NCBI GenBank assembly: GCA_973895155.1 | Contig: OZ316894.1 | Location: 13,308,828 to 13,372,827 of the forward strand | From: Marsupella aquatica | Taxonomy: Eukaryota > Plantae > Marchantiophyta | Direction: 5' to 3' | DNA length: 64,000 bases | In this document: positions 2,542-51,431 of the stretch, in pieces | Position numbering within the stretch: the first letter of the stretch is position 1 | How the letters are laid out: each line of letters begins with the position of its first letter | Position numbers and translations under genes: made by a program | The notes under the pieces: model-generated | Databases searched by the model: none | What the model saw: the letters and a program-made list of their open reading frames with translations, nothing else | What the model was told of the DNA's origin: nothing

Positions 2542-4400
2542 ATAGGCGTACGGACGTGGGTGTACGGCCTCCAGATTTCCAACATTTTAGTGGGGGGTCA
2601 CTCATGGGCTTGTTGGGATGAGCTCGCGGAGCTGATTCCAACAAGAGGCGGCGCTCCTCAAACGGAGCCAGGATGAGCAAGTTATGGCCTGGAGAACTTA
2701 TGTTTTTGCGGTACGGAAACGGCCATAACTCAGGCGTCTGAAGTCCGTTGAGGGAGCGACTTAGTGATTCGGAAGCAGGAAAAGAAGAGCTATCCAGGGG
2801 TGAGCTCAGGTGTGCACTTGGAAGGGCACCTAGTTTCGGCCATTTTGGGGTGCCTCTCACTTTCAGGGTTCACGTGTACTGTTGGGGCGCCGTCGAAGGC
2901 ACCGTCGGCCCCCTTGTTTTGGGTTTAGGGTTTTAGCAGCATGTGTGTGCCGCATGCTCCTCTTCAGTTTAAGGATTTCTCTTAGTGCAAGGTTTTAGCG
3001 GCGCCGCTAGGGTAGCCGCCACCGTTGTGACCCTGTGAGGGGTGCTTTGGTGTGATTTTTCAGTATTTAGGGGGATAGCCCCGAAGTAGTTAGGGGGACT
3101 CAGTGTGAAGTTAGCAAGGAGGGATAGAGTGGAGCCTGAGGAGTTTGAAAGCGTGTTCAGAGTAGTGAGGGGGAGCCATACTCATTGTCCGGAGAGGCAG
3201 GAGTTGAGTAGACGGCAGGAGGCCGGGTTACTCATGCAATGTGTATCGTTTTTCCCAAGAGATATGGATCTGTACATTTGACTTGATGGGCTTTTGTTGT
3301 GTGTTCCTTCTCCCTTTTTCGCTTTCCGAATTGTGTTCTCCCGTTCTATGATTTGAAGAAACTTGCTTGGTTTGAGTCGGCCTTGTGAGTAGGGGTGGTG
3401 ACAGCACTCTTTGGGTGACTCCGAGTGAAGGTGTAGTGGGGTAGTCGGCAGGACTTGATCAAAAGCTGTGGGGTGAGGGTAGTCGGTAGACTTGATCAAA
3501 ACCTACATTTCCGGGAGCGGAAACCAAAATACTCATCCTGGTGTGAAAAGAATCCAAATAGCGTCCCTCCACGACCCCGTAATACGATACCAACGGTTTA
3601 AGCGAAGAAAAGTGCGGTTTGCACGTATTAACCGTTGGAGAGGCAAGTGACACCTACAACTAATTCAAACATCAAAACTTGAATACTTAGGTTTGACCCA
3701 TGAAATGTTTGAAATTCAATTGATGTGAGTGGTACAAGTCTTCTCCATTAGATTCTTTCTCCTAAGCCCAATTTGGCACAAGAAAAAGACCCATACTTGG
3801 TCAAAAATCAATGTTGAAGAAAAGACACAAGCATTTTCTTGTGAGTCCAAATGTAGGGAGCTCCCTCATAACATGGGAGAAACCAAAGGGTTTTCTCCTA
3901 AGTTGAGAAATCTATTCCTATCTAAAAGGAATTCTAGACTCTAAGAGACAAGGTAAAAGGTAAGACGCTTACAAATCTAAATCTGAGACTCCATAAGTGA
4001 CAAGTGATGTCATTCTAAATCTGATCCTAATTAACTAAAATAAAGCTCAAGTAAGAGGTAAAACGATTTATGAGTCAAGGGCCAAAACTATGTAGTCTTT
4101 GTTCCGTCAAAGTTGTTGCCGAAAGTCTAAACCGATTCTGTAGTGTTCAAGCGATTGTTTGTCCGAAGCGATTCTTCCTTCCAAACTCAAACTTCTTAAC
4201 TTTCTTCCATAACGTTCCTTTGAGGCTTAAAATGGGTTAAAGGGTGACGGATAGACCAAAAGAAGCTTCAAGTAAGGTTAAAATGTTTGAAAATCTGCCA
4301 TTTCCACTCCAATGCTTATTTTTGCCATTCCACAGGGGTATTGAAATCGACATCTTCTCCATCGCCCGAAATGTCACTTCCAGACAGATTAACAACAGGA

Positions 4401-7157
4401 TTAACTAGGCGTGGGGCCAGGGATAGCATCAAATGTCGTGCGATTAAGATTCTTCCTTTTCATCGATCTAGTATTGGGCGAGGTGACAAGGATTTTATCA
4501 TCCCTATGGGAGTCTTGTGGCGAGATATTCCCAGATGCATGTCCCTTCCTCTTCAAAGATTTGGTGACAACATCTCCATTGAGAGGTGCACGTCTCTCCA
4601 AGTCAAACTCGACAGCGTTGGACAGTAGCATATTCATTGCATCTTCATACAACTTGGGGGAGCCTGCCTGGTCTGCTGATCAGAAAGCGAGTTCCCAAAT
4701 CGTGGGACCTTTTCCTCTATGCAACCCTTTCCGATACGCAGTGTAAGCAGCAACCTGAGAAATAGCTCAATTTTGGTCCATTTCACATGCCTCAAAGAGG
4801 CCAACCTTTTTCTTCATTACCCATGCTTTCATACCTGCGTGCACGGACTCTGATCCTGTACAATTAGGAATCTTAGCCCCTTCTTCGACACTCTTGTTAT
4901 GCAATTACATAGAATAAATTGTCTGTTACGCAACAAGAAAACACTAGCGTCGGGCGCTAGAGAAGTGGAGTCGGTACCTAGAAGTCAAAACTGGCAATGT
5001 ACATTAAGGGACAACTTATTGCATCCTATTGTGTTATCTGACAGTTCGAATAAATGATAGTGCCAGGCGCTAGTATTAAAGGATGCTATGGTATTGTAAT
5101 ATTTGAAGTTTACACTATGGATACAATCATTTTGTAATGAGAATATAGCAGAGCAATACCTAAAGAGCAGAAAGCAAAGTAAAACAACTTACCAAGCGAA
5201 TAAAATTTCCCCATTGCCTCCACCTGACGACCCACCATGAAATCCAACTCTGGAGCATCCGGAGCTTCCCGGGGACACAATTACCGGACTGCCACCACAA
5301 ATCAATCTCCCTTGAAAGTCTGTAAGCCTCTACAAACGTGGGGGCATTTTGCATCTTATCCCAAAGCCTGCGATGCTCTGCTTGACTCTCTTGAATCACT
5401 CCTTCAACTGAATGGCGATGGAAGGCTTGGTAGAAATGGAATGCGTCAGTTCACTCACGCTTTGGGTTTGGATGCCCTCCAAAAAAGACATTTCGGACTG
5501 CCAGCCAACCAGCTTGAGCATTGTCCGCCATGAATCCATGAATAATCGGATTTTCTAATCCATTCTCCTTGGACACCTCAATCATTAGTCTCCAAGCCTT
5601 CTCGAACAACTCTGTATCCTCTGCTTTTAGTTCGCAGGTAAATAAGGTACACAGAGCGCGATAGTTGTGATCGTAAATATGCGCACTAAAAGTAACCCAG
5701 TCTTTTGTGAGTCGTTTCATCACATCAAAACTTACCCAAGCACCTTCGAGACTTCCACCAGGTTGCATTTGTCTCAAAAGATCGACGCCTGATCCATGGC
5801 CGATCGAAGTCATCTTGAATATGTGAGGACGGTCTTCTTGAGATCCTTGACCTGGTAGGAGGTACCTTTGTAGGAAAGGCATGTTGATATTTCTTTGATA
5901 CCGAACAAGAAAATCTAGTTCACCTCGACCTTTCTGGTCCTGTCTAACACTACGAAAGAGGGACGCAAACTTCTGGGGTGTGGAAACTACCATGAGCGAC
6001 TCAAATATCTCTGTTTCTTCAATATCTTGAATATCTTCCATACTTTCACACAAGGACTTTACAAAGGACCCTGTCGCAACATTTTTTACACCAGCAGGGG
6101 TGAAAATTGGATTTCCTTCTAATTTCTTTTTGATAACCTCCTCAACAATCTTCTCTTTGCTCTGAGAAAACACCTTTCTTGAAGGATGGTTGTGGATCCC
6201 CATATGAATTGTCAAGCGGGACATGTAAGTACAGGTTTCTGAGTCAACTAGAACCTGAGGGGAGGTGTTTACAAAAGACAGCAAACAGGAAACAAGATTT
6301 AATAACAGAAACTAGTAACAGGAAAAAAAACTGGTAATAGGAAAATGGGTGAAAAAAAAAATTGATTTTTTTTTTTTGAGAAAAAAATAAATAAATTTTT
6401 CGGTCGACCAGTTTTTTTTGCTAGCGCCCAAATCTAACCAAAAATGTTGCATTGTTAATTTTTTTTGGAAATAACATGTTTTAGGAGACATTTTTAAATT
6501 GTCATTTTTCCTGGTAACAATGATTTTTTCCTGGTAATAGCACATTAAAAACAGGAAAAAAATTCCTGTTTACCTGTTTCCTGTCTCTGTCGCTATACCC
6601 AACCTTAAGATTTCACTGGAACCAGTTGACTTGAGAATGGTATCCATTGCACTTCTCCGATACACAATGGAATTTTTGGTAAAAATTGCTGTAACCTCCT
6701 GTTTAACAACTGTGTGAGGGGGTTTAGCACTAGACTCAGGCAAACCAGAAGGTCCATCATCGTCGCTATCTGAAAGCAAGACAACATCAACAAAGGGTTT
6801 GGATGAAGATGGGAGATCGGATGCTACTGGTTTTCGAATGACAATAGAATACCGAATTCCTGCATTCAGGTGCCAAAAATGAATCTCGTCATCAACATCA
6901 AAAGAAGGAGTGAAATTAGACGCTTCATCTCCATTTCCCTCCTCCAAAATGTCCTCAATGTCGTTCAAATCCAAACCAAAGCGCCCACAGAGATAATTCT
7001 CACTAACTTGCTTGTATACGTCATTGGCCGACAATGGAATGGATACAAGGTCACCGGTAGACGGACGCGTCAGAACGATTGACCTCGACATTGTAAGATC
7101 ATCCAACCCAAAAACACTCAGTTCACGATAATGAATGACGTCTTCGAATGTACACAA
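4401..7157 (-). pseudogene. MULE-type DDE transposase, spliced and disrupted
   Basis: WRKY/FAR1-like Zn-finger end IHMGIHNHP. Candidate catalytic triad AWVSFD (~5727), HGFMADNAQAGW (~5525) and GSESVHAG (~4848), with DAFHF at the CxxH-like position. GT donor at 5192. Several in-frame TGA/TAG stops and a MITE insertion at 6261-6600. Confidence 0.8.
6261..6600. mobile_element. Non-autonomous MULE-type MITE inserted in the transposase
   Basis: Asymmetric ends GGAGGTGTTTACAAAAGACAGCAAACAGG and CCTGTTTCCTGTCTCTGTCGCTATACCC. Flanks AACCTGAGG (6252-6260) and AACCTTAAG (6601-6609) match 7/9 as a TSD. Degenerate palindrome at ~6422. Confidence 0.75.
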
Positions 7158-8107
7158 TGGTATTCATAGTGAATAATCCGTTTGTCAGAGCCGTTAGAAT
7201 ACGACAGAATCACTACCGGTCAAAAGCACATCTGACACAATAAATGTTTTTTGTCGTTATGTCAACGACATTTACACTATTGAGCCTAAGATGTCCATTT
7301 CCAAACAGCATAATCATGTTTATTAAATCACCATAATTGAGTAGCGTCGGGCGCTACTCAAACCCACACCCTAAATTGTGGTATAAAACTGGAATATTTT
7401 ATCCGGGGTTTCAGAATAAATCCTAAATTTTTGCAGCTATTTTCCAAATATTATCTAAAATTTTACCAAAATATGGATATTTAATATTAGCGCCGGGCGC
7501 TAATCTGAAACGGTAATCATGACATTTATTTAAGGACAAATATTCAAAAATTGAATTCATTTTGTTTTTTATTTTATACTTCAGGGTCATTGTTGTCCTG
7601 ACTAAGGGAAAATTTAGGGTTTAAATAGTGAGCGTTTTGGGTAGCGCCAGGCGCTACTATTGACCAATATCAGATTTCAACTAGGAATATAGATTAAAAT
7701 CACCAAATTATTCTTTAACCGTCATATTCAACGGTAACGTTAGGTCGTGTAACATTGAAGATATGCCAACGGTATTCCAACAACTAATCCGGAGTTGACA
7801 AGTGGCGCTCAGGAGAATGTCGTAAATAGATATCAATGTAGCGAGGGGATAGTTTAGAGATGATACTCTCCCCACCTTCCTTGTCCGCTGTATTTAGGTT
7901 CCGTTTTGGAGGTTCTTTGTGCAAGAATTCTCTAGAAGAAGTACGGTACGAATGAGGTACTCATCACAATCGTGAAGCATTTTGTGTATGTGAAACATGG
8001 ACCCTCTCCCCACCACCTAGCATGGGTATAGTGCTAATGGGCAGAGAGAGCAGATCTATTCCCAGACATCCCAGTGCTCATTTTCTGGATCTGTTTACAG
8101 TCGTCAA

Positions 8108-11100
8108 GTGACACGGTCTACAGCATCCCAAACTCCTGCAACAATCGCGGTAGTCACATTTCCGAAGAGCAAGAGAGCGAAGATGGACGATCTCGACACA
8201 TACGCTGTCGAAGATCAAGGAGAAATGTCGCTGACAATGTCCGACGTTATCTCCAAGCACGTTATAGTGTTTGGCAAGGATTTTTTAGGGCACGACAAAG
8301 ACCCCCCAAGGATTCCAATGTGTCACTTGGTTCACATGGAAGTTGTCCGCACCTTACAGAAGGGAAGTCCTTCAATTGAAAAGTTGAAGGACTCTTTTCG
8401 TAGCATAGGATATAACTCAAAAATTGGAATGTTGTTCTATGTCCAGCCGGCAGATTGGAATGGGAATGTCCAGACATGTACTCCGGAAATTCGAGCGACC
8501 TGGGACCTGATGTGGGTGGGCGAGAAAGAGAAGTTTGAAGCTGAATGTGTGGCCGATCCAGACTTCATGGTGTTACAAGATAAGATGTTTTATGTTTTTG
8601 ACGGTAACCATCAACTTTACGCATGGTCGATCGTTACGAAAGAAAATCCCAAAGATAGCAAGTATCACCCGCGTGTGCAATGTACTATTTTCAAGGGTGA
8701 AAAGGGATCTTTGATTGAGATTGAGGCGACTATGCATACTGTGAACCAGTAAGTCTCTCTTTGAATTTCACCTATCCTTCTTTTTCATAGTATTTTTTTT
8801 ACTAGCGCCTGGCGCTATTGACTGACAAATTCTTCTGTAGACTTGGACAGGCCGTGGTGGAACCTTCCTGGATACTTCATGCCGACCGAATTAAGAGGAT
8901 TTTTTCCAACAATCTAGAATACTATAAATCAATCATTGATGGGGCAAACTTCAAGAAGTTTGGGCAGGTGATGCAGAAGACTCGAAAAGGATCGTGGTAT
9001 TCCAAGAAAATGCCTCAAGAAGCACTTCTGTATATCTTATGCGAGAATAAGATTAAATCCTATTCTCGCCAATTCAAGATGGACTTGGAGTCGGCAACCG
9101 CTCAGGGAAATCCTTGGTCTCAGGAAAAGACATCCAAACGACATGCGGTCATGATGAAAGAAGCAACGAAGGATTGGGCGATCAAGGTCTCAAAGATCAC
9201 TCCCTTGTTGAGTCCAGAGTTTGAAGACTTCATGACAACTTGTGCTGAGATGTATCCGATGACAGAGGTGAACAAACGCAAGAAGAAACCGGATGCGGTT
9301 GTCTGTACCATGGATCGTGCCAGGTTATTTACAGTAGTCTTCGCCCTCAACCCCAAATTGAGGAGCACTTTGTTAGTAGCGCATTGCACGCCAGAGCTCA
9401 GGAAGTAGTTCTTTCACCCACAAAGCGTTAGCGATGACCCTGTGAAGCAGTGGTGCCAAACATGGCAAACTTGGAATAGCATGGAGGGAATTGCTATTGG
9501 TATGCTGCAGACTGCCCTCCAGCAAATCAGTGAAATAATTCCTTCCAATCGATTGGAGGAATGGAAGTGTGAGTCTTATGACTCACTCGTTGAAATAGTG
9601 TGCAATGATTTCAAAAAATTTGGGGATGCAGTGAAAGGTAAGTTTTTCAATACGATGTGGATGTCCAAGTACCCGGACAAGGAAGACTACACACTCAAGA
9701 ATCAAAAGCGAGCAAAATGATATGTCTATTGTTTCTTCATGCACGTGGAGATTGTGAAGCCTGACTATTTTTGGGCTTACCCAGCTGCTTTCCAGAATTG
9801 GGTCATCTGCGCAGATGGAGACATTTTGGCCAAACTGTATTCGATGTATCCCGCAGAGGGTATACTTCCACCAAGGAAATTGTCAGAGTGGGAGAGAATT
9901 CACTGCCCTTGGTATCTTGACACCGACAAATGGGATTCTCCTTTTGACGACACTGAGAAGGATGCTTTCCATAAACTGTCCAAATCCCAAGTTCCGAGAC
10001 AATTTGTCTCCGACATGAAGCAAGGAATTGAGGGGGACATCAACTCGTCGACGACTGAGTTGCAAAAAAAATGCGAAACCACTGTGGTTCATGTTGATCG
10101 AAGCCGAAAACCAAGAGCCAAAGCCAAGGCGAATGCCCCTATGGCAAGTGCTAGTGCCAAGTCTGGGAAAAATGTAAGCTACACCTCCTTCTTCCAACTT
10201 CCTTCTTTGGTAGCGCCTGGCGCTATCATGTGTCGTGAGTTTAATATGTTTTATTTCCCAAAATTAATGTGAGTGTTTGGTCAGCGCCTGGCGCTAACAC
10301 TCTTTATGTGCTTGACACCATTTTTTGGTAGGTGGGCAAAAATCTGATACTGCCACGGATGACACAAAAGTCGATGCAACACCAGAAGTCTCTGAGGCCA
10401 ACATTGGTGCCAATCCAGACCCCATCACCCCAGTTGAGAAGGGGAAGGTTATAGTTCCTATGGATGCTACAAGCACAAAGAAGAAGAAGAAAAGGACCAT
10501 CGATGCCTGGGAATCGTCACGAGATAATGCTTTTGGGGCCGGTATCCAACGGGATGTGGGGAATTTCAAGACCAAACTCGGAAGACACTGTATGGTCGAA
10601 TCAAGCTTGGCAGAATTCATTGATAGTAAATTTAGTAAGGAAGAGAAGCCAGATTGGGTCGCAGACGCTGAGAAGTGGGGTAAGGATTTGATCAAATTGG
10701 GGTGTAGAGATAAAGGAGTCATTCGAGGTGGGAAGGAACGATCATTTGGGGTGAATGCGGGTTTCATCTATCTCCCAACTGGTTTGAAACCCAATTGTTG
10801 ACCGTCGAGTCCCGAAATGGAATGTCACAGATCACATAGCAGCCAAATGGTTTTTTTGGGCGATGGATCCTTTCCTTTTGGATGACGGCATGCTCCCTAT
10901 CTTATACTTGGATGACCACGATCAGATTTCCCAGGTCATTTCTGCATGTCAGCAATCCAAGAAGTTCATGTGCATCAATACGCACAATGTTTTCATGTCT
11001 GTCCCAATGTACAGATCCAAGATAGATGTCCAGGTAAATGTTCTCTCTGAGTATAGCTATACTAGCGCCCGACGCTAATCTTTCTTTCTTAGGAAGTCTT

Positions 11101-11722
11101 CTCTCATGAATAAGAGATTTTTAAAATCCAGTTGGTTTGTCAACTTTTGTAGGTCTTCACTCTTAGACAAGATATATTTTGTCGAGTTTCTTTTAAAGGA
11201 AAGGTCCCAAAGGATCCAAGATTCAAGCCGTTATCTAGCGCTAAAGATCCTTCAATCTCGAACCTTATTGGGCTACAATCTTTGAAGGAAGATCATTGTC
11301 CTGAACTCCATTTTACTGGGAATTCCCGACTACCGGTTGGTTTTATGCAAACTGTCCTTAAACTCTTTACGACACCTAAGGATATTGTAATTGATTGGAC
11401 CGTCGGCTCAGGTAGTACGTTCATTGCTGGGGATTACTCGGGCCGTTTTGTCATCGGGTTAGAAAATCGTTGGGAGTTTGTTGAGACCGCTTCGAGGATT
11501 TTGTTGGACCTCATTTCTCCCAAACCTTTGGAGACACAACCTCCCCCTCCTCAAATAACTGGACAAAAAAAGAAAGATAGACTTAGATCTGTCCTCAACT
11601 TTGACTCGGACGAAGATGATGGGACGCCAAAAGATGATGTTCCTAAGGATGTCAATGACGGTGGGAAAGAGGAAACCCGACATGATGGGTCAACGGAGGA
11701 CAGCGAAGAGTCTTTGAAGTAA
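8108..11722 (+). pseudogene. ParB/Srx-like domain fused to a beta-class (N4C/N6A) DNA methyltransferase-like domain; multi-exon, disrupted
   Basis: N-terminal VRTLQKGSPSIEKLKDSFRSIGY...FYVFDGNHQLYAW resembles ParB (DGxxR). C-terminal FIYLPTG...FLLDDGMLPIL...RLPVGFMQTVLKLFTTPKDIVIDWTVGSGSTFIAGDYSGRFVIGLEN follows MTase motif order IV-VI-X-I-II. Frame-consistent GT-AG introns at 8749-8840 and 11034-11152; a probable intron at 10174-10331 does not keep frame. In-frame stops at 9406 and 9718, frameshift at ~10793. Confidence 0.8.
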
Positions 11723-11843
11723 TTTTTGTCTCTCGTAAGCTCCTTTATCCTTTCAATTGTTGGCTAACCTTCAATTCCACCGGTTCTATCGGTTAAGTAC
11801 TTACTTCCTCTTTCTCTTCCGCTTCTCTTTTGAGCAGGTCAGA

Positions 11844-12146
11844 ATGGAACCAAAGAAAATGGTTCAACTCCGGAGGAAAGTGGCTCAAAATGTAATCATC
11901 ACTCCCGAGAAGCCGTTTGTGTTGCCATCATATGCTGAGAACGTCGCGAGGAAGGTAGAGAAATTTAGAACGCTTTGCTGGGAAACAAAAGGACTTAGGC
12001 TTCTTAGGGGAGTAGACAGGAAGTTCATGAGGAACCCCTACGTAGATGATGTTTCTAGAAGCAAGTATATTGATGATGAGGCAGAGTCGACCGACAGATC
12101 TCATAGCTCCCAGAATGAGAGCTCAGAATCTGACACTGAAGGGTAG
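11844..12146 (+). CDS. Small 100-aa ORF of unknown function inside the MULE (separate gene or extra exon)
   Basis: Open frame MEPKKMVQLRRK...SDTEG, preceded by a pyrimidine tract and CAG acceptor at ~11837. Confidence 0.35.
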   Translation: MEPKKMVQLRRKVAQNVIITPEKPFVLPSYAENVARKVEKFRTLCWETKGLRLLRGVDRKFMRNPYVDDVSRSKYIDDEAESTDRSHSSQNESSESDTEG

Positions 12147-13241
12147 CAATTTTCTCCTCTATCAGGTCAAACTTCCTCCCAACTGTACGTGTATGCCCTT
12201 GGTTTTTGTTAGCGCCGGGCGCTATTGAATTTATTAAATCGGAATTGAGTTTGAGGGAGGTTTCCCCTTCCATTCAATGGTTAATGGGGTCTTTCGTAAC
12301 GTCCTTTGTGTGGGTTCCTCTCCTTGTTTAACTAGCACCCGACGCTCCCCAAAAAATACGTTGGAAGTTTCCGTTTGAATTTTTTTGTTTCCGCCCTAGT
12401 GTCATTTGGCTTTCAGTCGGCGACTGGTACCAAGAAGAGGACCAATAACGGGAAATCCAAGTCCCTTATAAACATACTATTGTTTCTTTCAAAGTCCATT
12501 GCTCTTGTTTTTCTCCTTCTCGATTCCATGGAAGTCCAGTGTGTCGACGGCCCACGAGAGCATATGTCAACTTCCGATTAGATGGTTTCCGCCAAGATCC
12601 AGATCGTCAGGACGCTGGGATTGACGATGATTGTCACTCTTTGAGCTAGGACATTGTACGAGGAAGCACCCACCAGGAGTATTAGCGCCTGGCGCTAGGT
12701 ACAATTGTACTGGCATCTTTAGTGTTCCTATGTAGCAATATTTGTACATCGAGGACAATATGTTTCACTTAAATAAAAAAGCTCGAGTTTCTTTTCTTTC
12801 AATTTCCCGTTTGAAGTTCTGACTCAGATACCTTGGTTAAGTCCTGCTTTTGTGCTTTGATATTGAACCTAGACTGTTAGAAATGTTTGGTTTCTATTTG
12901 GCTCTCAGCCTGAACATCAATCCTACGTTCTCATGATTTTCTCCACAAAGCATTTGAAGCGCCCGGCTCTAGTATTCGGCATGTTTGGGCGATTAATGTT
13001 TCATTATTTTGGGTTTGAACGCCCGGCGCTAGTATTCGGCATGATGCGTTTGTGTTTGTTTTGCCTATAAACTCCCGGTGCTAGTATTCAGCATCGCATA
13101 ATTATCAGTATTTTAGGAACGGTTTTTTAAAAATTTGCCACAATACCAGGAGAAATGTGCACCCAAAACAGGAAATTTTGCTGTTACCAGTTCCTGTTAT
13201 AGTTTGTTGTTTGCTGTTTACTGCCTTTTGTAAACACCTCC

Positions 13242-13954
13242 TAAAGCTGACCTTCCCGTCAAACTTCTCCACCTCAAACTTTGGCGCCACAAGCTTTCGT
13301 GAAGTCATTGATGCTGACACACACAATCACCAAAAATGAAAGTTGGCAAAAGTGGAACTATAATGCACCATCGCGTAGCCTGCAAGGTACACTACCAATA
13401 TCTTAAAATGATTTGGCAAAAAACTGCCTCAAAAAAGCTTATCTAGAAATATTTTTGTTTTCCTCTCCTCAAAGCACCCGCAGAACGGTGTTTGGTAAGT
13501 CACTCCTTCTGAACGCAAAACCTCCAGCGCACAACGACCAGTAACATGATCACAAAAATTGTTGAAAACAATCTGATCCGTCACCATGATTCAACACACG
13601 AACGTTCTCACCACTGCCCAGGCAACCGAACGTTGAACACAAAGCTTTGATACCACTTGTAGGAAAACCGATAGCTCCAGACTAGACAGCAATGCAGAAC
13701 ATGAGAGCACTCAATCTCACACTACACCAACAAGACACCACAATCATGGAGAAACTCTTGAAGGATCCATAGCTGATGAGATCAAACATGTGAAGAATGA
13801 GGGAGAGAATGCTCTTTCTCCAACCTATACCCCCTAAGGGGAACTAAGATGTGTGGGCCTAAATAAGTGGATCTTATCCTAAACTAACCAAGGGTCAATT
13901 AACCCTAGTAAGTCCAAACTAACTATAGTCAAGAACTCAAGTCAATTCCTAACA
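13242..13954 (-). mobile_element. Ty1/Copia 5-prime end: LTR (13658-13954), tRNA-iMet PBS, start of gag
   Basis: TG...CA-bounded LTR; PBS TGGTATCAAAGC (13644-13655, minus). gag N-terminus KFEVEKFDGKVSF is cut by the MULE end. Confidence 0.8.
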
Positions 13955-14900
13955 ATATTTATAGATGACTACTTGAGATATGTATGACCTAGCTAGCTGT
14001 GGCGGGCTAGGGACGGAGTCTGGTTTTTATTTTCGCGATTTAATCGGATTTTCGGGCTTACGACCGCAATTATTTCGCTGGCCAATTGAGGCGCTTGTAA
14101 TTTATTTCCTAGAGAAGAAGTCTGATGTTTTTGTCATTTTTCAAAAGTGAAAAGGTTGAGAATCAGACAATAAGCACGATGAAGTGCTTGGATGCAAGGG
14201 TGAGTACACAAGTTCTGACATTTTTGAAAGGTATTGTGAAGAATAGGAAATTACTCGTCATCTCACCATGATTATACTCCACAATAGAACGGTGTTGTTG
14301 AGCGGCTCAATCAAACACTATTGGAACGTGCTAGGTGTATGATGGGGCAATCCAATTTACCATATATTTTTTGGGCTGAAGCTATGAACACTGTAGCTTA
14401 TTTGGTAAACCTTTCTCCTTCTAGTGCCATTGATTACATGACGTTGTTTGAATGGAGGTATGAACGGCAAGCGGATTACCAACGGTTGGTAGTCTTTGGA
14501 TGTGATCTTTATCCTCTCACACCTAAGGAGCAGCGGTCCAAGCTCAAAGCAACGTCCAAGAAATGCGTCTTTCTTGGATACCAAAGTGGTGTGAAGGCTT
14601 ATTGGTTGTGGGATCCAAACACCGGTAAGATTGTTGTCAATAGGGATGTTTTCTTTAATGAGGATACCAGAACACTGAAGGAGGAGAAGAATTCTCAAGC
14701 TTCCCATATTGACATGGCAAAATCTTCCTTAGTTTGGTGGGAGGTTGAATTGGATGATGAGGCACAAGGAGATGCACAACAAGAAGCAGACCGTTGTCAT
14801 GCCAAAACATTTCAGCCCGGGGGTGGTCTTTTATAGTGAGTGATGGGTAGGTAGTCGCCATCCAGTCACGACTATGCGGATGCAAACAAGTTGTTGGGGA
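13955..14900 (+). pseudogene. Copia integrase fragment
   Basis: IFIDDYLRYV, NGVVERLNQTLLERARCM, FWAEAMNTVAYLVN, RSKL..KKCVFLGY, VNRDVFFNE; contains stops and frameshifts. Confidence 0.9.
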
Positions 14901-14989
14901 CCAATCAACTGGTGACTCATCATCATTCGTCTGAGACAATTGGTGTTTGGGTGGTGCTTGGCTGTTGGCAACTGGTCAGGCAACAATTG

Positions 14990-15458
14990 TGTTAATATCA
15001 AAGACAATTTACTTGATACAATAATATTTGATTTCCCTCTACTGTCCATCACTTGGTTTACAGCAAGGTGGAGTGCACTTTGACCATCACAAATAATAGA
15101 GCTTCACATTCCCATGTGGCAATCCCAATCTATCCAACCAAATTGCTTCCTTTGTTGCTTCTGCTGCTACAACAAACTCTAATTTTGTAGTAGACTAAGC
15201 TATACACTTTTGCAAAGTAGACCTCTAACTTATGCATCCAACACAAGTGTGAACAATACCCCATTGTTAATTTTCTCTGGTTTAGATCTTGTGTATAGTC
15301 AACATCTATATACCAATCAATGATCTAGCATTATCTGCATGTGCATCAAACAATAGACTATGATCCATATTACCTTTCATGTACCTGATAATCCATTTCA
15401 CTGCTTCCCAATGTACCTTTCTTGAATTTGACATGTATTTGCTTAGGCTTATTGCCAG
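14990..15458 (-). pseudogene. Copia RT C-terminus / RNase H fragment
   Basis: SKYMSN...HWEAVKWIIRYMKG, STTKLEFVVAAEATKEAIWL, CDGQSALHLA. Confidence 0.85.
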
Positions 15459-18235: not shown

Positions 18236-19421
<1,186 letters not shown>

Positions 19422-24240: not shown

Positions 24241-24899
24241 CTCATTATTTAGTAACTTAGGCACGACACTTGACGTAGTTGTTATGCAAACCCCTCTTAC
24301 TAATGGTACCATTATGGTCATCCCAATTGTTTTAGGATAATAAATGTGCTCTATTGCAAACAAAAAAATATTTGGGGCCTGCACAATGTACTCTCTAGCC
24401 ATGAAATCATAAGGGAGGTTGTAGAAGGCCCGTGGCAACAATGTAGTACTGCTACTTGTAGGAGCACCAACCACAGGTTGAGCAGGGCATAACCACAGTG
24501 CCAGGAAACATGAAAAAGGAAACAACAAACAACAAACAGTAAAAAGCAAATGGATGAGAATTTTTGAGAATTTTTGGGGGATTTTTATTTTTTATTTTTA
24601 AAATTTTTTTGTTTGTATTTTTTACATTTCTTTACTAGCACCCAAAGCTAGCAATAGTAACGCCTAGCGCTAGCCAAAAATGATTGTTTTTAAAAATATT
24701 TTGAAAATTTTGAGTTTTAATGAGACCTTTTTGATATTTCATTTTTGCTCGTAATAGTAAATTTTTCCTCATAACTGGAAATAATTTTCCTGTTTCCTGA
24801 CACGGTGTAAAGCCTCGGTTGAGCATGACCTGCTGGTTGTATTGATTTGCCTTGGAGGGATGCCAATTGAGCTCGGACTGCATCCAACTCGTTGGTCAA
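24240..24899 (-). pseudogene. gag-like retroelement ORF fragment split by the MITE at 24485-24816
   Basis: The frame ...QPAGHAQP resumes as AQPVVGAPTSSS... across the insertion; the TSD duplicates AQP. Confidence 0.4.
24485..24816. mobile_element. Non-autonomous MULE-type MITE with a perfect 9-bp TSD
   Basis: TSD GGTTGAGCA at 24476-24484 and 24817-24825. Ends GGGCATAACCACAGTGCCAGGAAAC and GTTTCCTGACACGGTGTAAAGCCTC resemble those of 6261-6600. Palindrome variants at 24636 and 24658. Confidence 0.88.
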
Positions 24900-32546: not shown

Positions 32547-34270
32547 CACTAGTAGAAACCGGGGTGTTTTATGACTAAGTTTTACGACTGCCCATGACTC
32601 CAACTATAGCTCCTTGATGGCAAACCGCAGGCTCTTCCCGGTTCTTCAACCAAAAACTCACCCAAAACACACCCTTGCAATGTCCTGAGTTAGTTGCAAC
32701 AACTCCAATCTAGCTTGCAGCTGCCAATCCGTTCCCTCCGCCCTCCTTGCCAATGCCAACTCCCAATAGCAATGAGGCTTGTTCAGCTGACCTCCTTTGT
32801 AGGAGCTCCCAACTCCCAAAGTGAAACCGTCACTACTTGCAGCTACGAAAAACGGTCCCTGGACCTTGTCGCTGCCAATGTGCGTCGTGCGCTCAGTTCT
32901 CCTCCCCACCAAGAACTGAAGAAGGATCGGCTTCAACTATAACTTCAACTCCAATGCCCAAGAAGATTGATGAGCTCCTTAGTCAAAGACGCAGCTGGAA
33001 GGGTATGCACGCACTTACAGTTCACTAAGCTCCAATGCCCGGGACGATTGAGGAGCTGCTCCTGAGACTGGTCGTAGCTTGAACGGTAAGACCACAGGAA
33101 TCCCGCGTACGTTGTTCGAGCTCACAATACGCTTGGAAGAGAGGATAGTAGTAGACTTCACCCTAAGCAATGAGATTAGACAGCATCGGGCTTTGATCCT
33201 AAGTCTTTACGCCTCCCACACAGGTCCCGCATTAGTAAAGCTTGTGCAGTGCCTTCCGCAGCAGTAGCAAAACTCCCGACTGACTCCCTCCTTCCGCAGC
33301 AGTAGTGATCACCTCCCTTGAAGCAGCTGTGAATGCACTCTACTTGCAATGGAAGACTCCAATATGTCCATCACGCAGCGATGGAAGCCACAACAATGGG
33401 AGCACGCATGGACGGGACCCACACCACCACAATGAGCTCGTAAACATCGAGGGAAAGTGAAGGAAATACGCACCCTAGCCAGCCGCAAGGATGCACTTTT
33501 GCCTTGGTGTCTGCAAACTCTCCCGGGACCCGATCGAAGGAAGCTCAGACATGTGTGACTAAACGGGATGTGCGACTAAACGGGACTCGGGAACGGAAAA
33601 GTTTGACCTGATGGTGGCGATCAACTCCATCCAATGGTGCGTGTCCTCCGATTAAACCCCCTCCCCCTTGAGATCGATATAACCCCCCCACCCTTGTGAT
33701 ATAACCCCCCTAAACCCCCTTTAGGTGTCTTGCTAAAACCCCCCCTAAACTTTGGCAGGAAGGGTTACATGCATGTGGATGAGTTAGGCCTAAACTGCAC
33801 TTCATGTAACACAAAACCACAAAAAAGCCTCCCTAGCAAACCCTTATGCCCCTGCATATAGTTCAGTCAATGGTTGTGTAAAGCGTAATCCCATGGCTCA
33901 GAATGTGTATGGGATCGGGTAAATTTCCTTTAACCAGGCATATGGCACCTACATTATTTAAAAAAGTGTTCAATGGCCACAATGAAAATTAATGGACAAG
34001 TCAATTTTGTTGACTAAATTGGACTTGGCTTACTATTGGCCATTGTCTTATGTTGACTAAGTATGACTATGTAGTCATACTTGAATGACTCATTCAATAG
34101 ATCATGATTTTTAAAAAGTTCAATGGTCTTAAGTTGTCATAAACATGACTACTGATGACTATCGAGTCTTATGGCGTCTCAAAAATAAGACTGATGTTCA
34201 AAGGTTGCACTTGCGTGGTCACCCCAGTCACAAGTGGTCTGGTCACGAAATGCCCCGGTTTCTACTAGTG
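32547..34270. mobile_element. Non-autonomous CACTA (En/Spm) element, 1724 bp
   Basis: Perfect 18-bp TIR CACTAGTAGAAACCGGGG / CCCCGGTTTCTACTAGTG and 3-bp TSD CCA (32544-32546, 34271-34273). Confidence 0.95.
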
Positions 34271-36513: not shown

Positions 36514-37465
36514 TAGCCCCATGCCTGTGCGTTGCACAAAAGATGTTGAGGCGAGGAAAATATGCTATGATGAAAAAAGATGTCGATGAGAAAAAAGGAA
36601 GTTGAGGAGGAAAAAAGAAGTTGAGGTGAAAAAAGATGGTGAGGTGAGGAAAGGGTGTTGAGATGAAAAAATATATCGATGAGAGAAAAAGAAGTCGAGG
36701 TGAAGAAAAGTTGTTGGGGAGAGAAATGATGGCAAAGTGAGAAAAAGATGTAAAAATGAGGAAAATATGTTGAGGAAAGAAATGTTGAACATGAGGGAAA
36801 GATGTTGCAGTGAGATAAAGATGTCAAGGGGAGAAAATATGTCAAGTGAGGAAAAAATGTCATGGTGAGGTAAAGATGTGAATGTGAGAAAAATGGCAAA
36901 ATGAGAAAAAGATGTTGAAAAGCAATACATATGTAAAGATTAGAAAAATATCTGCAAGTGAAAAAAGATGCTAAGGAGACATATAAAAGAGCTTTGCCAT
37001 GTAGTTGTTGGTATTGGTGCAATTGTGGCCATACAATTGTTGTGGTTGTGTTCTGTAACTCGTGTTGCACATAAAAATTGGAGAAGTGAGATAACGACCA
37101 CTGCATCATAGAATCTAACCAAGTGACAGGAAAAATGTGTTTTTTAATTAAACTTTTCAATATGTAGAGAAATAAGCAATTTTCTGTGCTTTATTTACAT
37201 TCCATTTAAAAAAATAGAAATTTTATCCCCATCTTTCTAAATATAAATACAGTTGATTATTTAAAGTTAAGTTATTATCTTGGGTAGGTGCAGGCAGGCT
37301 AAATTGTAGTTAGGGTAAACATTTATTTGAAATGGTGTGTATGGATAGATCTGAAAGTGAAAAAAACATTATTTTGATAAAGGTCTAAGATTGATTCACA
37401 TTTTTTTATGAGTTTGGAAAAGAACTATTTCATCTTCTTGGTAGAATAGGGTATTATATGGGAGA
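36514..37465 (-). mobile_element. Non-autonomous Helitron with an internal degenerate purine-rich minisatellite
   Basis: GTGCGTTGCAC hairpin near the 3-prime end, AAAAGATGTTGAGGTGAG-type repeats, homology to 49969-51431. Confidence 0.65.
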
Positions 37466-47029: not shown

Positions 47030-48136
47030 CTTTTCACCACCACTGAGCGGCACGGGAACACTATTTTGTGGGAGACATTCTCATCACCATTGAGTTGTAG
47101 TGAAACATTGTTCTGTGGGAGAACATTCTCACTTTCACTCAAAACATGCACCAAGCACAATGTGATTTTTGGAGGAAAACACTATGCTCTTTTCGTTCTC
47201 TCTATGCCCTAACTAACCGTACCTCACCTCACCTCTGCTGTGCGCAACGACTACGTACTTGCACTTGTACTCCATCACAAAAATTGTTGGCCCCGCCATA
47301 AATTCTTGTGCAAAATGACCCAAGAGGTGAACGAAGGAAAAAATGAGAAAATGCAACGTCAACTTACAAAAGCTTTGATGTTTTTTGAGAAAACATCAAT
47401 CCAAGACCCCATAAAAGATCAAGTCGAGCACTTAGACTCCATAGCCAAAGAAATTAAGCTATAAAAGCAATATTAAACTTGATATTACTTCGCACTCGAA
47501 TAACAAAACTCTAGAAATTTTTGCCAACACGTGGTTCTTGCCGATGCGCAAAATAAAATGCAAGATTGTCCAATTGACTGTACATCAAAATCCATAGACA
47601 CATCCGACACTTTTGATGTGAAGTTTCAATTGAGAAACTCATTTTTTTTAATGCAAAATCTCCAATGCACAACGACCAATGACATAATCACACAATTGTT
47701 GACAACAATAAAATCTTTCACCCTGATTCAACACAAAGAACACTTTCACCACTGTTCAAACAATCGAATGTCAACCATAAAGCTCTAATATCACTTGTAA
47801 AAAATCATCAATTCTAGACTAGATATCAATGTAAAACATAACAACATTCAATCTCACACTATATAAACAAGACATCACAATGGATAAACTACTAAAAGAT
47901 CCATAACTCATGAGATAATATATGTGAAAAATGAAAGAAAGAATACTCTTACTCCGGACCTAAACAATTGAATTTTATCATAAACAAACCAAGTGTCAAT
48001 TAACCCTAATAAAACCAAACTAACTTAAGCCAATCAATTCCTAACCATTTGACTTACATAGTTGCCTCTTCAATCACACCTGAACAATTACTGCAATATC
48101 ACATGGGTCCCAGTCATCATTGTCTCCTATTCTTTC

Positions 48137-49968: not shown

Positions 49969-51431
49969 CTAGCTCAATACCCGTGCCTTGCACAAAAGAT
50001 GTCGTGTCGCCCAAGATGTAGTTAAGAACAAATATGTTGTGTCGCCCAAGATATCGTTAAGAACAAATATGTTGTGTCGCCCAAGATGCCATTAAGAAAA
50101 AAAGATGTGGTGTCGCCCAATATGTCGTTAAAAAAGAAAATGTAGTGTCGCCCAATTGAAGATGTCATGAAGACAAAAATGTTGTGTCACCCAAAATGTC
50201 ATTAATGAAGAAAAAAGATATAGTGTCACCCAAGATGTTGTTGACAAATTTTTTTTTGTGACACCCAAGATGTACTTAAGAAAAATGATATTGTGTCAAC
50301 CCAAGATGTTGTGGCACCCAATATGTCCTTAAGAAAAGAAATGCCACGTTGCCCACGATGTGGTTAAGAGAAAAGTTGTTGTTAAGTAAAAAAGACTTTG
50401 TTAAGACAAAAGTTGCACAAAAGATGGTGTGGTGAGAAAAATATGTTGAGGTGAAAATAGATGTTGAGGTGAGAAAAAGAAGTTGAAGTGAGAAAAAGAT
50501 GTCGAGGTGAACAAAGATGTTGATGAGAAAAAGAGATGTTGAGCTAAGAAAAAGAAGTAGAGCAAAAACTATGTCAAGGAGAGAAAAGATGACAATGTGA
50601 GAAAAATATGTGAAGATGAGGAAAACATGTTGCCGTGAGATAAAAATGTGAAGTTGAGAAATAGGTCAGATTTTGAGGTGAAAACAAATGTCAATGACAA
50701 AAAGAGATGTTGAGGTGAGACAAAGAAGTCAAGGTGATGTAGAGGAGAGAAAAAACATGGCGAGGTGAGAAAACAATATTGAGGAGAGAAAATATGTCAA
50801 GGGTGAGGGAAAGATGGTGTAGTGAGATAATGATGTCAAGGTGAGAAAAGATATCAAGTCAGGTGAGAAAATATATCAAGGACCTAAATGATGTTGAGGG
50901 TGAGAAAAAATTGTCGTGAGATAAAACTGTCAATGTCAGAAAAAATGGTAAGATGAGAAAAAAATGTCAAGGCAAGGTAGAGTTGTTGTGGTGGTGTGCA
51001 ACAACTCGTGCACTGCAAATAGAAATTGGAGGCTGAGATAACAGTCACTGCAACATAGAGTCCAAGCACAACCAAGTGGTAGAAAAAATATATTTTTTAT
51101 TTTAGATTTCTAGAGAAATTAATATCATATATATATAAATTATTAATACTCAAGTTTTTTCAGAACTTTAAAGTTATTATCCAATTCTTTAAGTCTCAAT
51201 TCTAATAATTTAAAGGAATAATATTCAATATTTTATTTTTTATCTTGGTTGGGTTTGGGTAGGCTATGGGTAGCTTGGGCAGAGGTAATTGAGATTAATA
51301 GAGATATGGATGGATCCTACATTTGCAGAAAAACAAATTTTTACTTAAGACCTAGGATTGTTCACAATTTTTCTTGAGTTTGTAAATAATATCCATATCC
51401 ATTTTTAGCAGATATGGTATATCACTTATGA
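49969..51431 (-). mobile_element. Non-autonomous Helitron with two internal minisatellite arrays
   Basis: Minus-strand 3-prime end GTGCAAGGCAC hairpin, then CTAG followed by T; 5-prime TC after A at 51431. Contains ~35-bp TGTCGCCCAAGAT repeats followed by ~19-bp GATGTTGAGGTGAGAAAA repeats. Confidence 0.75.

Follow-up and report, generated by a model that had tools for sequence, protein, structure and literature searches.

Palindromes in the non-coding DNA of a decayed Marsupella aquatica transposon as candidate sites of a predicted ParB-fold, methyltransferase-type cargo protein

The window analysed here, a stretch of 64,000 nucleotides from the liverwort Marsupella aquatica (contig OZ316894.1, positions 13,308,828 to 13,372,827; coordinates below are those of the window), contains a decayed DNA transposon, apparently a Mutator-like element (MULE). 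It carries two divergent genes, a transposase on the minus strand and a cargo gene on the plus strand, and no other genes were found in it. A 15-bp palindrome, TAGCGCCNGGCGCTA, is scattered over the non-coding parts of this element. The palindromes are probably recognition sites of the cargo protein, by which the element would target itself in the manner of the VANC proteins of Arabidopsis VANDAL transposons, with a chemistry of ParB type. This reading is supported by the placement of the motif, by the two genes, by a predicted ParB fold with a GNHR box in relatives of the cargo protein, and by palindromes which are specific to each family. The parts of the element and a related element to its right are given below, where MITE stands for miniature inverted-repeat transposable element and TIR for terminal inverted repeat. 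Cargo introns were inferred from GT-AG ends and homology.

4340..13241, no strand: decayed MULE-like DNA transposon, visible extent, with its right end at a TIR-like terminus
4340..4892, minus: second exon of the transposase, broken and truncated ahead of the C-terminal SWIM-type region that the homologues L004 and P0008 have
4893..5192, minus: putative transposase intron with palindromes at 4945 and 5058; GTAAGT donor, acceptor uncertain by about 30 nt
5193..6260, minus: catalytic part of the transposase (FDVMKR, FMADNA, DAFHF) with an in-frame stop at 5451-5453; 10 homologues at 29-58%
6261..6590, no strand: MITE-like insert of 330 bp with a degenerate palindrome at 6422, replacing about 146 transposase codons (Cys/His-rich GCM-like region)
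6591..7094, minus: 5' part of the transposase, putative start at 7094; tblastn match to residues 1-146 of P0005, 33%
7342..7656, no strand: three palindromes (7342, 7488, 7642) in the gap between the divergent genes
7997..8748, plus: cargo exon 1, predicted ParB/Srx-fold domain, putative start; stop at 8018-8020; GNHQ
8749..8840, plus: putative cargo intron 1, palindrome at 8803
8841..10173, plus: cargo exon 2, all-helical region (from the homologue model) with two in-frame stops; 27% over about 410 amino acids to P0169
10174..10331, plus: putative cargo intron 2, palindromes at 10211 and 10282
10332..11033, plus: cargo exon 3, linker and N-terminal half of the methyltransferase; GFIYLPTGL at the motif-IV position (no Asp); frameshift near 10791
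11034..11152, plus: putative cargo intron 3, palindrome at 11063
11153..11718, plus: cargo exon 4, S-adenosylmethionine-binding half of a beta-class N6/N4 methyltransferase; PF01555 E 1.2e-8, matches to DpnA and MboIIA
11719..11837, plus: putative cargo intron 4, no palindrome
11838..12146, plus: cargo exon 5, tail ending in RNPYVDD, frameshift near 11862; weak match to the C-terminus of P0032 (E 0.14) and a similar tail in L008
12210..13083, no strand: six downstream copies at 12210, 12333, 12683, 12957, 13017 and 13069 with 0, 3, 0, 2, 2 and 4 mismatches
13169..13241, no strand: right terminal region with short repeats of the CAG[GC]AAA type, a second class of motif
24494..24807, no strand: second MITE-like element, matching the first at 71% over 100 nt; its palindrome at 24658 is degenerate

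Six exact copies of the palindrome (7488, 7642, 8803, 10211, 12210 and 12683) and 14 copies at up to two mismatches were found in the window, as compared to a chance expectation for a 15-mer of 0.00 and 0.03, respectively, from 100 dinucleotide shuffles. Five copies differ at one position (4945, 5058, 7342, 10282 and 11063). The 11 copies at up to one mismatch all lie between 4945 and 12697, inside the single element, which holds about 15 copies when degenerate ones are included, spaced 52-2284 bp apart. Each position for which an earlier note on this DNA had claimed a copy was found to hold one on rescan. The remaining approximately 55 kb of the window contain no copy at up to one mismatch and a single one at up to three, at 24658 in the second MITE-like element. 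Confinement of the motif to the element and two related MITEs, which had also been claimed, stood up window-wide, but the MITE copies are degenerate, with four mismatches at 6422 and two at 24658.

According to the exon model 5630 of the 8902 bases within 4340-13241 are coding. All 14 copies at up to three mismatches in this range lie outside the modelled exons, in agreement with the earlier note, and for the 11 best copies the probability of such exon avoidance under uniform placement is 1.7e-5. The six copies reported downstream of the cargo gene are all present, although only those at 12210 and 12683 are exact. The 11 best copies have flanks close to background, with a mean best-orientation identity of 0.34 versus 0.31 ± 0.01, a value reached by 16 of 1000 null sets, and no tandem array covering these copies was found. 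The proposal that simple tandem duplication does not explain the motif holds for them but not for the last three copies (12957, 13017 and 13069), which look like short duplications because they have the 3' flank GTATTC[GA]GCAT in common at a spacing of 60 and 52 bp. In four of the five copies with a single mismatch, the change is C>T or G>A at CG or CCG. This is the pattern expected from deamination of 5-methylcytosine (5mC), an established source of C>T changes, and would point to methylation by the host; the CpG observed-to-expected ratio of the window is 0.58.

The search with exon 1 of the cargo gene yielded 183 proteins at E <= 0.001 with phmmer, and no matches in a word-seeded search. 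Named relatives belong to Riccia sorocarpa, a liverwort, and Adiantum nelumboides, a fern. The Riccia protein P0169 (1207 amino acids) is collinear with the cargo over the ParB, helical and methyltransferase parts and carries PF01555. Together with its fellow homologues P0167 and P0170 it has been automatically named 'Trimethylguanosine synthase' in UniRef, probably a mislabel of the methyltransferase fold. The open reading frame 11838-12146 was also considered as a separate gene, which was rejected as it matches the tails of homologues.

The N-terminal half of the cargo protein is predicted to adopt a ParB/Srx fold. Modelled from an alignment of 58 rows, exon 1 gave a predicted local distance difference test score of 92.5, and 28 of the 33 Foldseek rows listed, including every listed row to rank 40, are of the ParB/Noc/KorB/PadC/Srx/SerK/SbnI type. 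Structural re-alignment yielded a Z of 8.2 and a root-mean-square deviation (rmsd) of 2.8-2.9 over 97 residues to ParB and Noc, with all 32 rows listed showing that fold; the model of the Riccia homologue reached a Z of 9.2 to a ParB-type fold. Relative to ParB the cargo fold has inserts of about 50 residues. The arginine of box II (GNHR), which is needed for nucleotide binding in ParB (PMC12704722), is present in 51 of the 58 aligned rows, and the GNHQ of the window copy is likely to reflect decay. R56, found in 53 of 57 rows, and N188 are near-invariant.

Sequence profiles did not name the domain. Pfam gave no ParB family for the window exons, nor one at cut-off for the 58 aligned homologues, which had weak matches to DUF1015 (4/58) and DndB (3/58), and PDB sequence searches with the ParB profile and with P0169 returned nothing meaningful. 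The ESM Atlas placed fungal DUF3723 clusters first for 8183-8749 (0.96) and listed one ParB_N cluster at 0.91, which is a lead only. From this proximity of features in the ESM Atlas DUF3723 may itself be a ParB-fold domain; no paper holding both the ParB and DUF3723 terms was found in a literature search of incomplete coverage. In a tree of 32 ParB-domain rows (31 chosen ones and the window) the window row was not placed and lay nearest to unnamed proteins. Viral contigs contained no relative of the transposase or the cargo and no paired motif, and P0169 had no match in 50,697 phage records.

The C-terminal half shows a permuted order, with the catalytic motif before the S-adenosylmethionine-binding motif. 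Canonical motif IV is SPPY in N4-cytosine and DPPY in N6-adenine methyltransferases (PMC8885841). The general catalytic pattern (D/N/S)PP(Y/F/W) was found neither in the cargo nor in its relatives, which have DLPT (P0169), DMPS, DMPT, DVPF, DFPI or DVPE at this position, that is D-x-P-[T/S/F/I/E], and the window copy reads YLPT. Because of this non-canonical motif IV methyltransferase activity of the cargo appears doubtful, and cytosine specificity is not indicated.

Another line of evidence comes from relatives of the element. L001, a metagenome contig of 2 kb with 61% transposase identity, has an intron at the same position as the transposase intron 4893..5192, and this intron contains three copies of a TATTGCTAGCGCCGGCGCTAGCAATA-type site (1111, 1195 and 1285) which did not occur in 200 shuffles. 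The site is a longer palindrome with the half-site of the window motif and a spacer of 0 versus 1 in the window. The remainder of the intron aligns poorly to the window and the flanks are unrelated; the second copy has arms of 29 bp. A perfect 14-bp palindrome at 2996-3009 of the window, TAGCGGCGCCGCTA, two mismatches from the L001-type site, lies outside the mapped element.

P0016, the only match in the search with exon 2 (36% cargo identity), reads through the intron that matches 10174-10331 as LLAPGAS, which equals the in-frame translation of the 15-mer; the read-through of the window gives LVAPGAI. Of 172 proteins only two, P0016 and P0172 of one cluster, have the peptide LAPGAS (for 20 positions about 8e-6), and it is absent from 99,996 background residues. 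A further relative, L008, is a eukaryote-like contig of genome G001 with an apparently intact ParB-methyltransferase gene at 30% cargo identity. It lacks the window motif and has instead four copies of a different 22-bp palindrome, TGGGTCTCGGATCCGAGACCCA, upstream of this gene; its intron at the place of cargo intron 1 is free of palindromes. L009 is a second cargo copy, the contig of which ends before the upstream region. The claim of the earlier note that the palindromes are selected sites for a protein of the element is borne out to the extent that the sites are tied to the element, that a predicted ParB-fold protein is encoded there, and that relatives keep a palindrome as the flanks change. 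Two candidates were dropped, L003 as a chance match to a transketolase-like gene and L002 as too short to show the intron. L004, L008 and L009 (G001 contigs C80, C58 and C134) are intron-containing, eukaryote-like transposon genes in a cyanobacterial assembly and likely contamination.

Sister copies were seen in contigs from four of four runs (two studies, two organism codes), which cover 30 of 30 bins of 3800-14200 with many variants. They differ from the window at 5453, 9406, 10167, 10791 and 11862, each time in the direction that opens the inferred reading frames. The window copy is thus a dead copy of a multi-copy family. In the promoter gap (7310-7690) one of the 39 listed variable places falls in the motif, a C>T change at 7493 in the outer C, which is common among sister copies. 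Loose contig ends contain more motif-like words in the promoter gaps of other copies.

Going beyond placement, domains and family-specific palindromes, we infer a mechanism in which a dimer of the cargo protein would read the two-fold symmetric site. With its nucleotide-binding ParB domain the protein would be able to load and spread between sites which are never more than about 2.3 kb apart, and the spreading protein would cover and protect its own element. Such coverage could keep the element active against host silencing by 5mC, as VANC does for VANDAL. The window copy being dead, the protein would come in trans from sister copies. Two versions of this mechanism, each tentative in itself, carry similar weight: the methyltransferase half may be an atypical amino-methyltransferase which marks the element, or a fold with weak or no catalytic activity that serves for binding, the odds of it methylating being about even. 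A bolder extension, for which we see a limited chance, is a nuclear system of ParB-parS style in seed-free land plants, where a clamp gated by nucleoside triphosphate would load at family-specific intronic palindromes, slide, mark the element (N6-methyladenine or N4-methylcytosine, 4mC) or shield it and so escape 5mC silencing, protein and palindrome changing together.

A number of observations weigh against the cargo protein as the reader of the palindromes. The earlier note had placed copies in each cargo intron, which is true of introns 1-3, but the fourth has none. The test for conservation of the promoter motifs carries little weight (p = 0.06 or 0.026 according to the span chosen, from listed places only), and contigs tend to end inside motifs, so that variants there are under-listed. 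No cargo gene is visible on the 2-kb contig of L001, P0016 provides peptide evidence only, and the L008 palindromes stand in a tandem array of 106-107 bp with none in its introns, an array that could consist of subterminal transposase sites. As to the fold, all Foldseek E-values are at least 0.08, and the structural re-alignment covered Foldseek's own matches only. A helix-turn-helix was not resolved in the helical region, since matches end at the ParB N-domain and one row alone extends weakly beyond it (7ng0, rmsd 4.7). Finally, motif IV is without the aromatic residue in most relatives and without the Asp in the window copy.

The strongest alternative, though an unlikely one, is that the palindromes are internal sites of the transposase, bound by its GCM-like zinc domain for synapsis or autoregulation, with the cargo protein binding elsewhere or without sequence preference. 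The retention of a degenerate copy in both MITEs speaks for it and against the cargo protein, in L001 the motif is seen with the transposase gene alone, and the L008 array could be subterminal. The ends of the element, however, carry the separate CAG[GC]AAA repeat class, which differs from the palindrome and is a better candidate for transposase sites. Moreover L004 of genome G001, a full-length transposase of the family at 30% identity with an intron at the same position, has no palindrome there or in its 4.1 kb, and nine of the 15 copies of the window element lie more than 2 kb from the known right end. Several GATAC[CA] words were seen in the 3' region of L004. The weights given to this and the following alternatives are rough, and the alternatives are not strictly exclusive.

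It is rather improbable that the palindrome was captured as the site of a transcription or chromatin factor of the host which aids expression of the element. The three copies in the divergent promoter gap and the avoidance of exons would suit such a role, but the spacer changes from 1 in the window to 0 in L001 and the word is an entirely different one in L008, whereas one would hardly expect a conserved host factor to follow such changes, and the rest of the window has no copy at up to one mismatch. A little less probable still is an action as RNA or DNA hairpins, be it as splicing signal, small-RNA source or cruciform. GC-rich palindromes in introns and the long arms of the second L001 copy would fit with hairpins; against them stand the copies in the promoter gap and downstream, arms of just 7 bp in the window motif, and the absence of an Rfam match within 3000-15000.

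The earlier note had linked the central CCNGG to the targets of Dcm and M.MvaI, and such an N4-cytosine activity of the cargo protein on it is now improbable. In its favour are the PF01555 match and an inner C unchanged across the 11 best copies (22 of 22 half-sites). Of these copies six have CCWGG and two CCSGG, but three contain no CCNGG, nor do any of the three L001 copies, and the L008 palindrome, which lacks it as well, centres on GGATCC. The outer C is commonly changed at 7493 in sister copies, and motif IV is other than SPPY (PMC8885841). CCNGG was rejected as the conserved core. Least probable of all is that the motif spread neutrally through slippage, gene conversion or repeated micro-insertions and now serves no function. 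The duplicated terminal copies at 52-60 bp and a flank identity slightly above null are in favour of this. Against it, the 11 best copies have near-background flanks with no tandem array over them, and relatives at 36-61% protein identity retain a CpG-rich word despite the low CpG ratio of the window.

The cargo-protein system proposed here works like ParB-parS and like VANDAL/VANC, yet it is filed in neither, as the element has no ParA, no helix-turn-helix was resolved, and VANC is set apart by its description. Bacterial ParB reads palindromic parS, its ParB domain gates loading and sliding, and phage fusions of ParB with N6/N4 methyltransferases are described as common (PMC12704722). The cargo resembles ParB, Noc and KorB with their sites parS, NBS and OB in the fold of the N-domain, in the arginine of GxxR in relatives, in a palindromic site of similar length near the gene, and in the PF01555 fusion known from phages. 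It differs in having no resolved helix-turn-helix or C-terminal dimer domain, and since the element holds transposase and cargo only, the cargo is not filed as ParABS. For VANC21, both hypomethylation and binding to motifs located in introns and in intergenic and terminal non-coding DNA have been shown (PMC5735166). As with the window element, a protein encoded by the element is paired with family-specific short motifs confined to non-coding DNA. The VANC motifs, however, are of 9 nt, non-palindromic, in the same orientation and spread by tandem repeats, as opposed to a 15-bp palindrome, and the description of VANC in that paper names no ParB or methyltransferase domain, a distinction made by description and not by sequence.

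Closest by domain layout is Sola1-1_Ec32 of Ectocarpus, with a divergent gene for a protein of 1104 amino acids combining ParB and N4/N6-methyltransferase (PMC12477816). Its ParB-like domain and PF01555 are in one gene on the strand opposite to the DNA transposase, but that transposase is of the Sola type, the host is a brown alga, and the main text of the paper describes no palindromic target. In the red alga Bostrychia the Plavaka elements PAG2 and PAG3 encode a ParB-like accessory protein for which inverted repeats were proposed as sites; the same elements carry a PF01555 gene, and related accessory genes are reported on Mutator elements of Chondrus (bioRxiv 10.1101/2025.02.11.637652). There ParB is fused to a 2-oxoglutarate oxygenase and the methyltransferase is in a separate gene with SET, whereas the window element has ParB and methyltransferase in one gene; the Plavaka repeats form tandem arrays beside the gene, as in L008, in contrast to sites dispersed through introns.

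A permuted beta-class amino-methyltransferase fold in a eukaryote is also known from the bdelloid N4CMT, a 4mC enzyme with SPPY (PMC8885841), and from MpDN4MT1 of Marchantia, described without extra domains (bioRxiv 10.1101/2021.02.12.428880). As described, these are host-domesticated and make silencing or sperm marks, while the cargo is borne by a transposon, fused to ParB and has D-x-P-[T/S/F/I/E]. A helix-turn-helix of ParB type fused to a different methyltransferase clade has been reported from chlorophytes and chytrids (PMC4738411). ParB-methyltransferase accessory genes have been noticed on transposons of brown, red and green algae; for the fused type self-targeting was put forward, but no site was defined (PMC12477816). 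In the literature searched, an incomplete set of main texts, neither a ParB-methyltransferase transposon protein from a land plant nor a defined dispersed site of a fusion of this kind was reported. The window element supplies an exact candidate site for this fused type, L001 and L008 offer two naturally different sites for swap tests, and multi-copy homologues are at hand in Riccia sorocarpa and Adiantum nelumboides.

MULE transposases consist of a WRKY-GCM1 zinc domain, a DDE core and a C-terminal SWIM region (PMC1702500). Read by eye, the homologues P0005, P0008 and L004 have a Cys/His-rich N-terminal region and acidic catalytic motifs, and P0008 and L004 also a C-terminal CxC...CxH region; both zinc regions are absent from the window copy. 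The transposase matched no Pfam family at cut-off and nothing meaningful in a PDB sequence search. As no Pfam family confirms it, the MULE-like nature of the element is inferred from these features.

Residues 147-292 of P0005 have no counterpart in the window transposase, their place being taken by the first MITE, and sister contigs continue with different sequence beyond 6261. The left 66 nt of this MITE are 83% complementary to 13176-13241, the right end of the element, and its ends also carry the CAG[GC]AAA-type repeat. A clean insertion or a spliceable intron with a 9-bp target-site duplication was rejected, as about 146 codons are missing, and 6261-13241 was rejected as the whole element, as the transposase runs on to the left of 6261. 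The two MITE-like elements (6261-6590 and 24494-24807) have different termini, and in each the degenerate palindrome is followed by CCAAAAATG. The left end and a target-site duplication, which is 8-11 bp long in MULEs, were sought within the window and not found, leaving the one TIR-like end at 13241. Between the palindromes at 12333 and 12683 a coding-like frame with one stop occupies the minus strand at 12400-12680, possibly the remnant of a third gene.

To the right of the element depth rises into higher-copy repeats (13242-14836), of which 13676-13932 resembles 47813-48033. A junction near 13657 looks like that of a long terminal repeat with a primer site, and the open reading frame 14288-14836 is presumably integrase-like. 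Minus-strand reading frames at 18236-19272, in which introns appear to be few or absent over the stretch seen, we take to resemble the alpha subunit of the nascent polypeptide-associated complex. Two related arrays of degenerate 18-19-bp units, with an array of a 35-bp unit, lie about 13.6 kb apart at 36531-36994 and 49994-50998. At the left edge (1-308) a GC-rich tandem repeat of 47 bp has at least four near-identical copies. Inverted arms of 29 bp starting with CACTA, about 1.7 kb apart, delimit 32547-34270, which we take to be a likely non-autonomous CACTA element.

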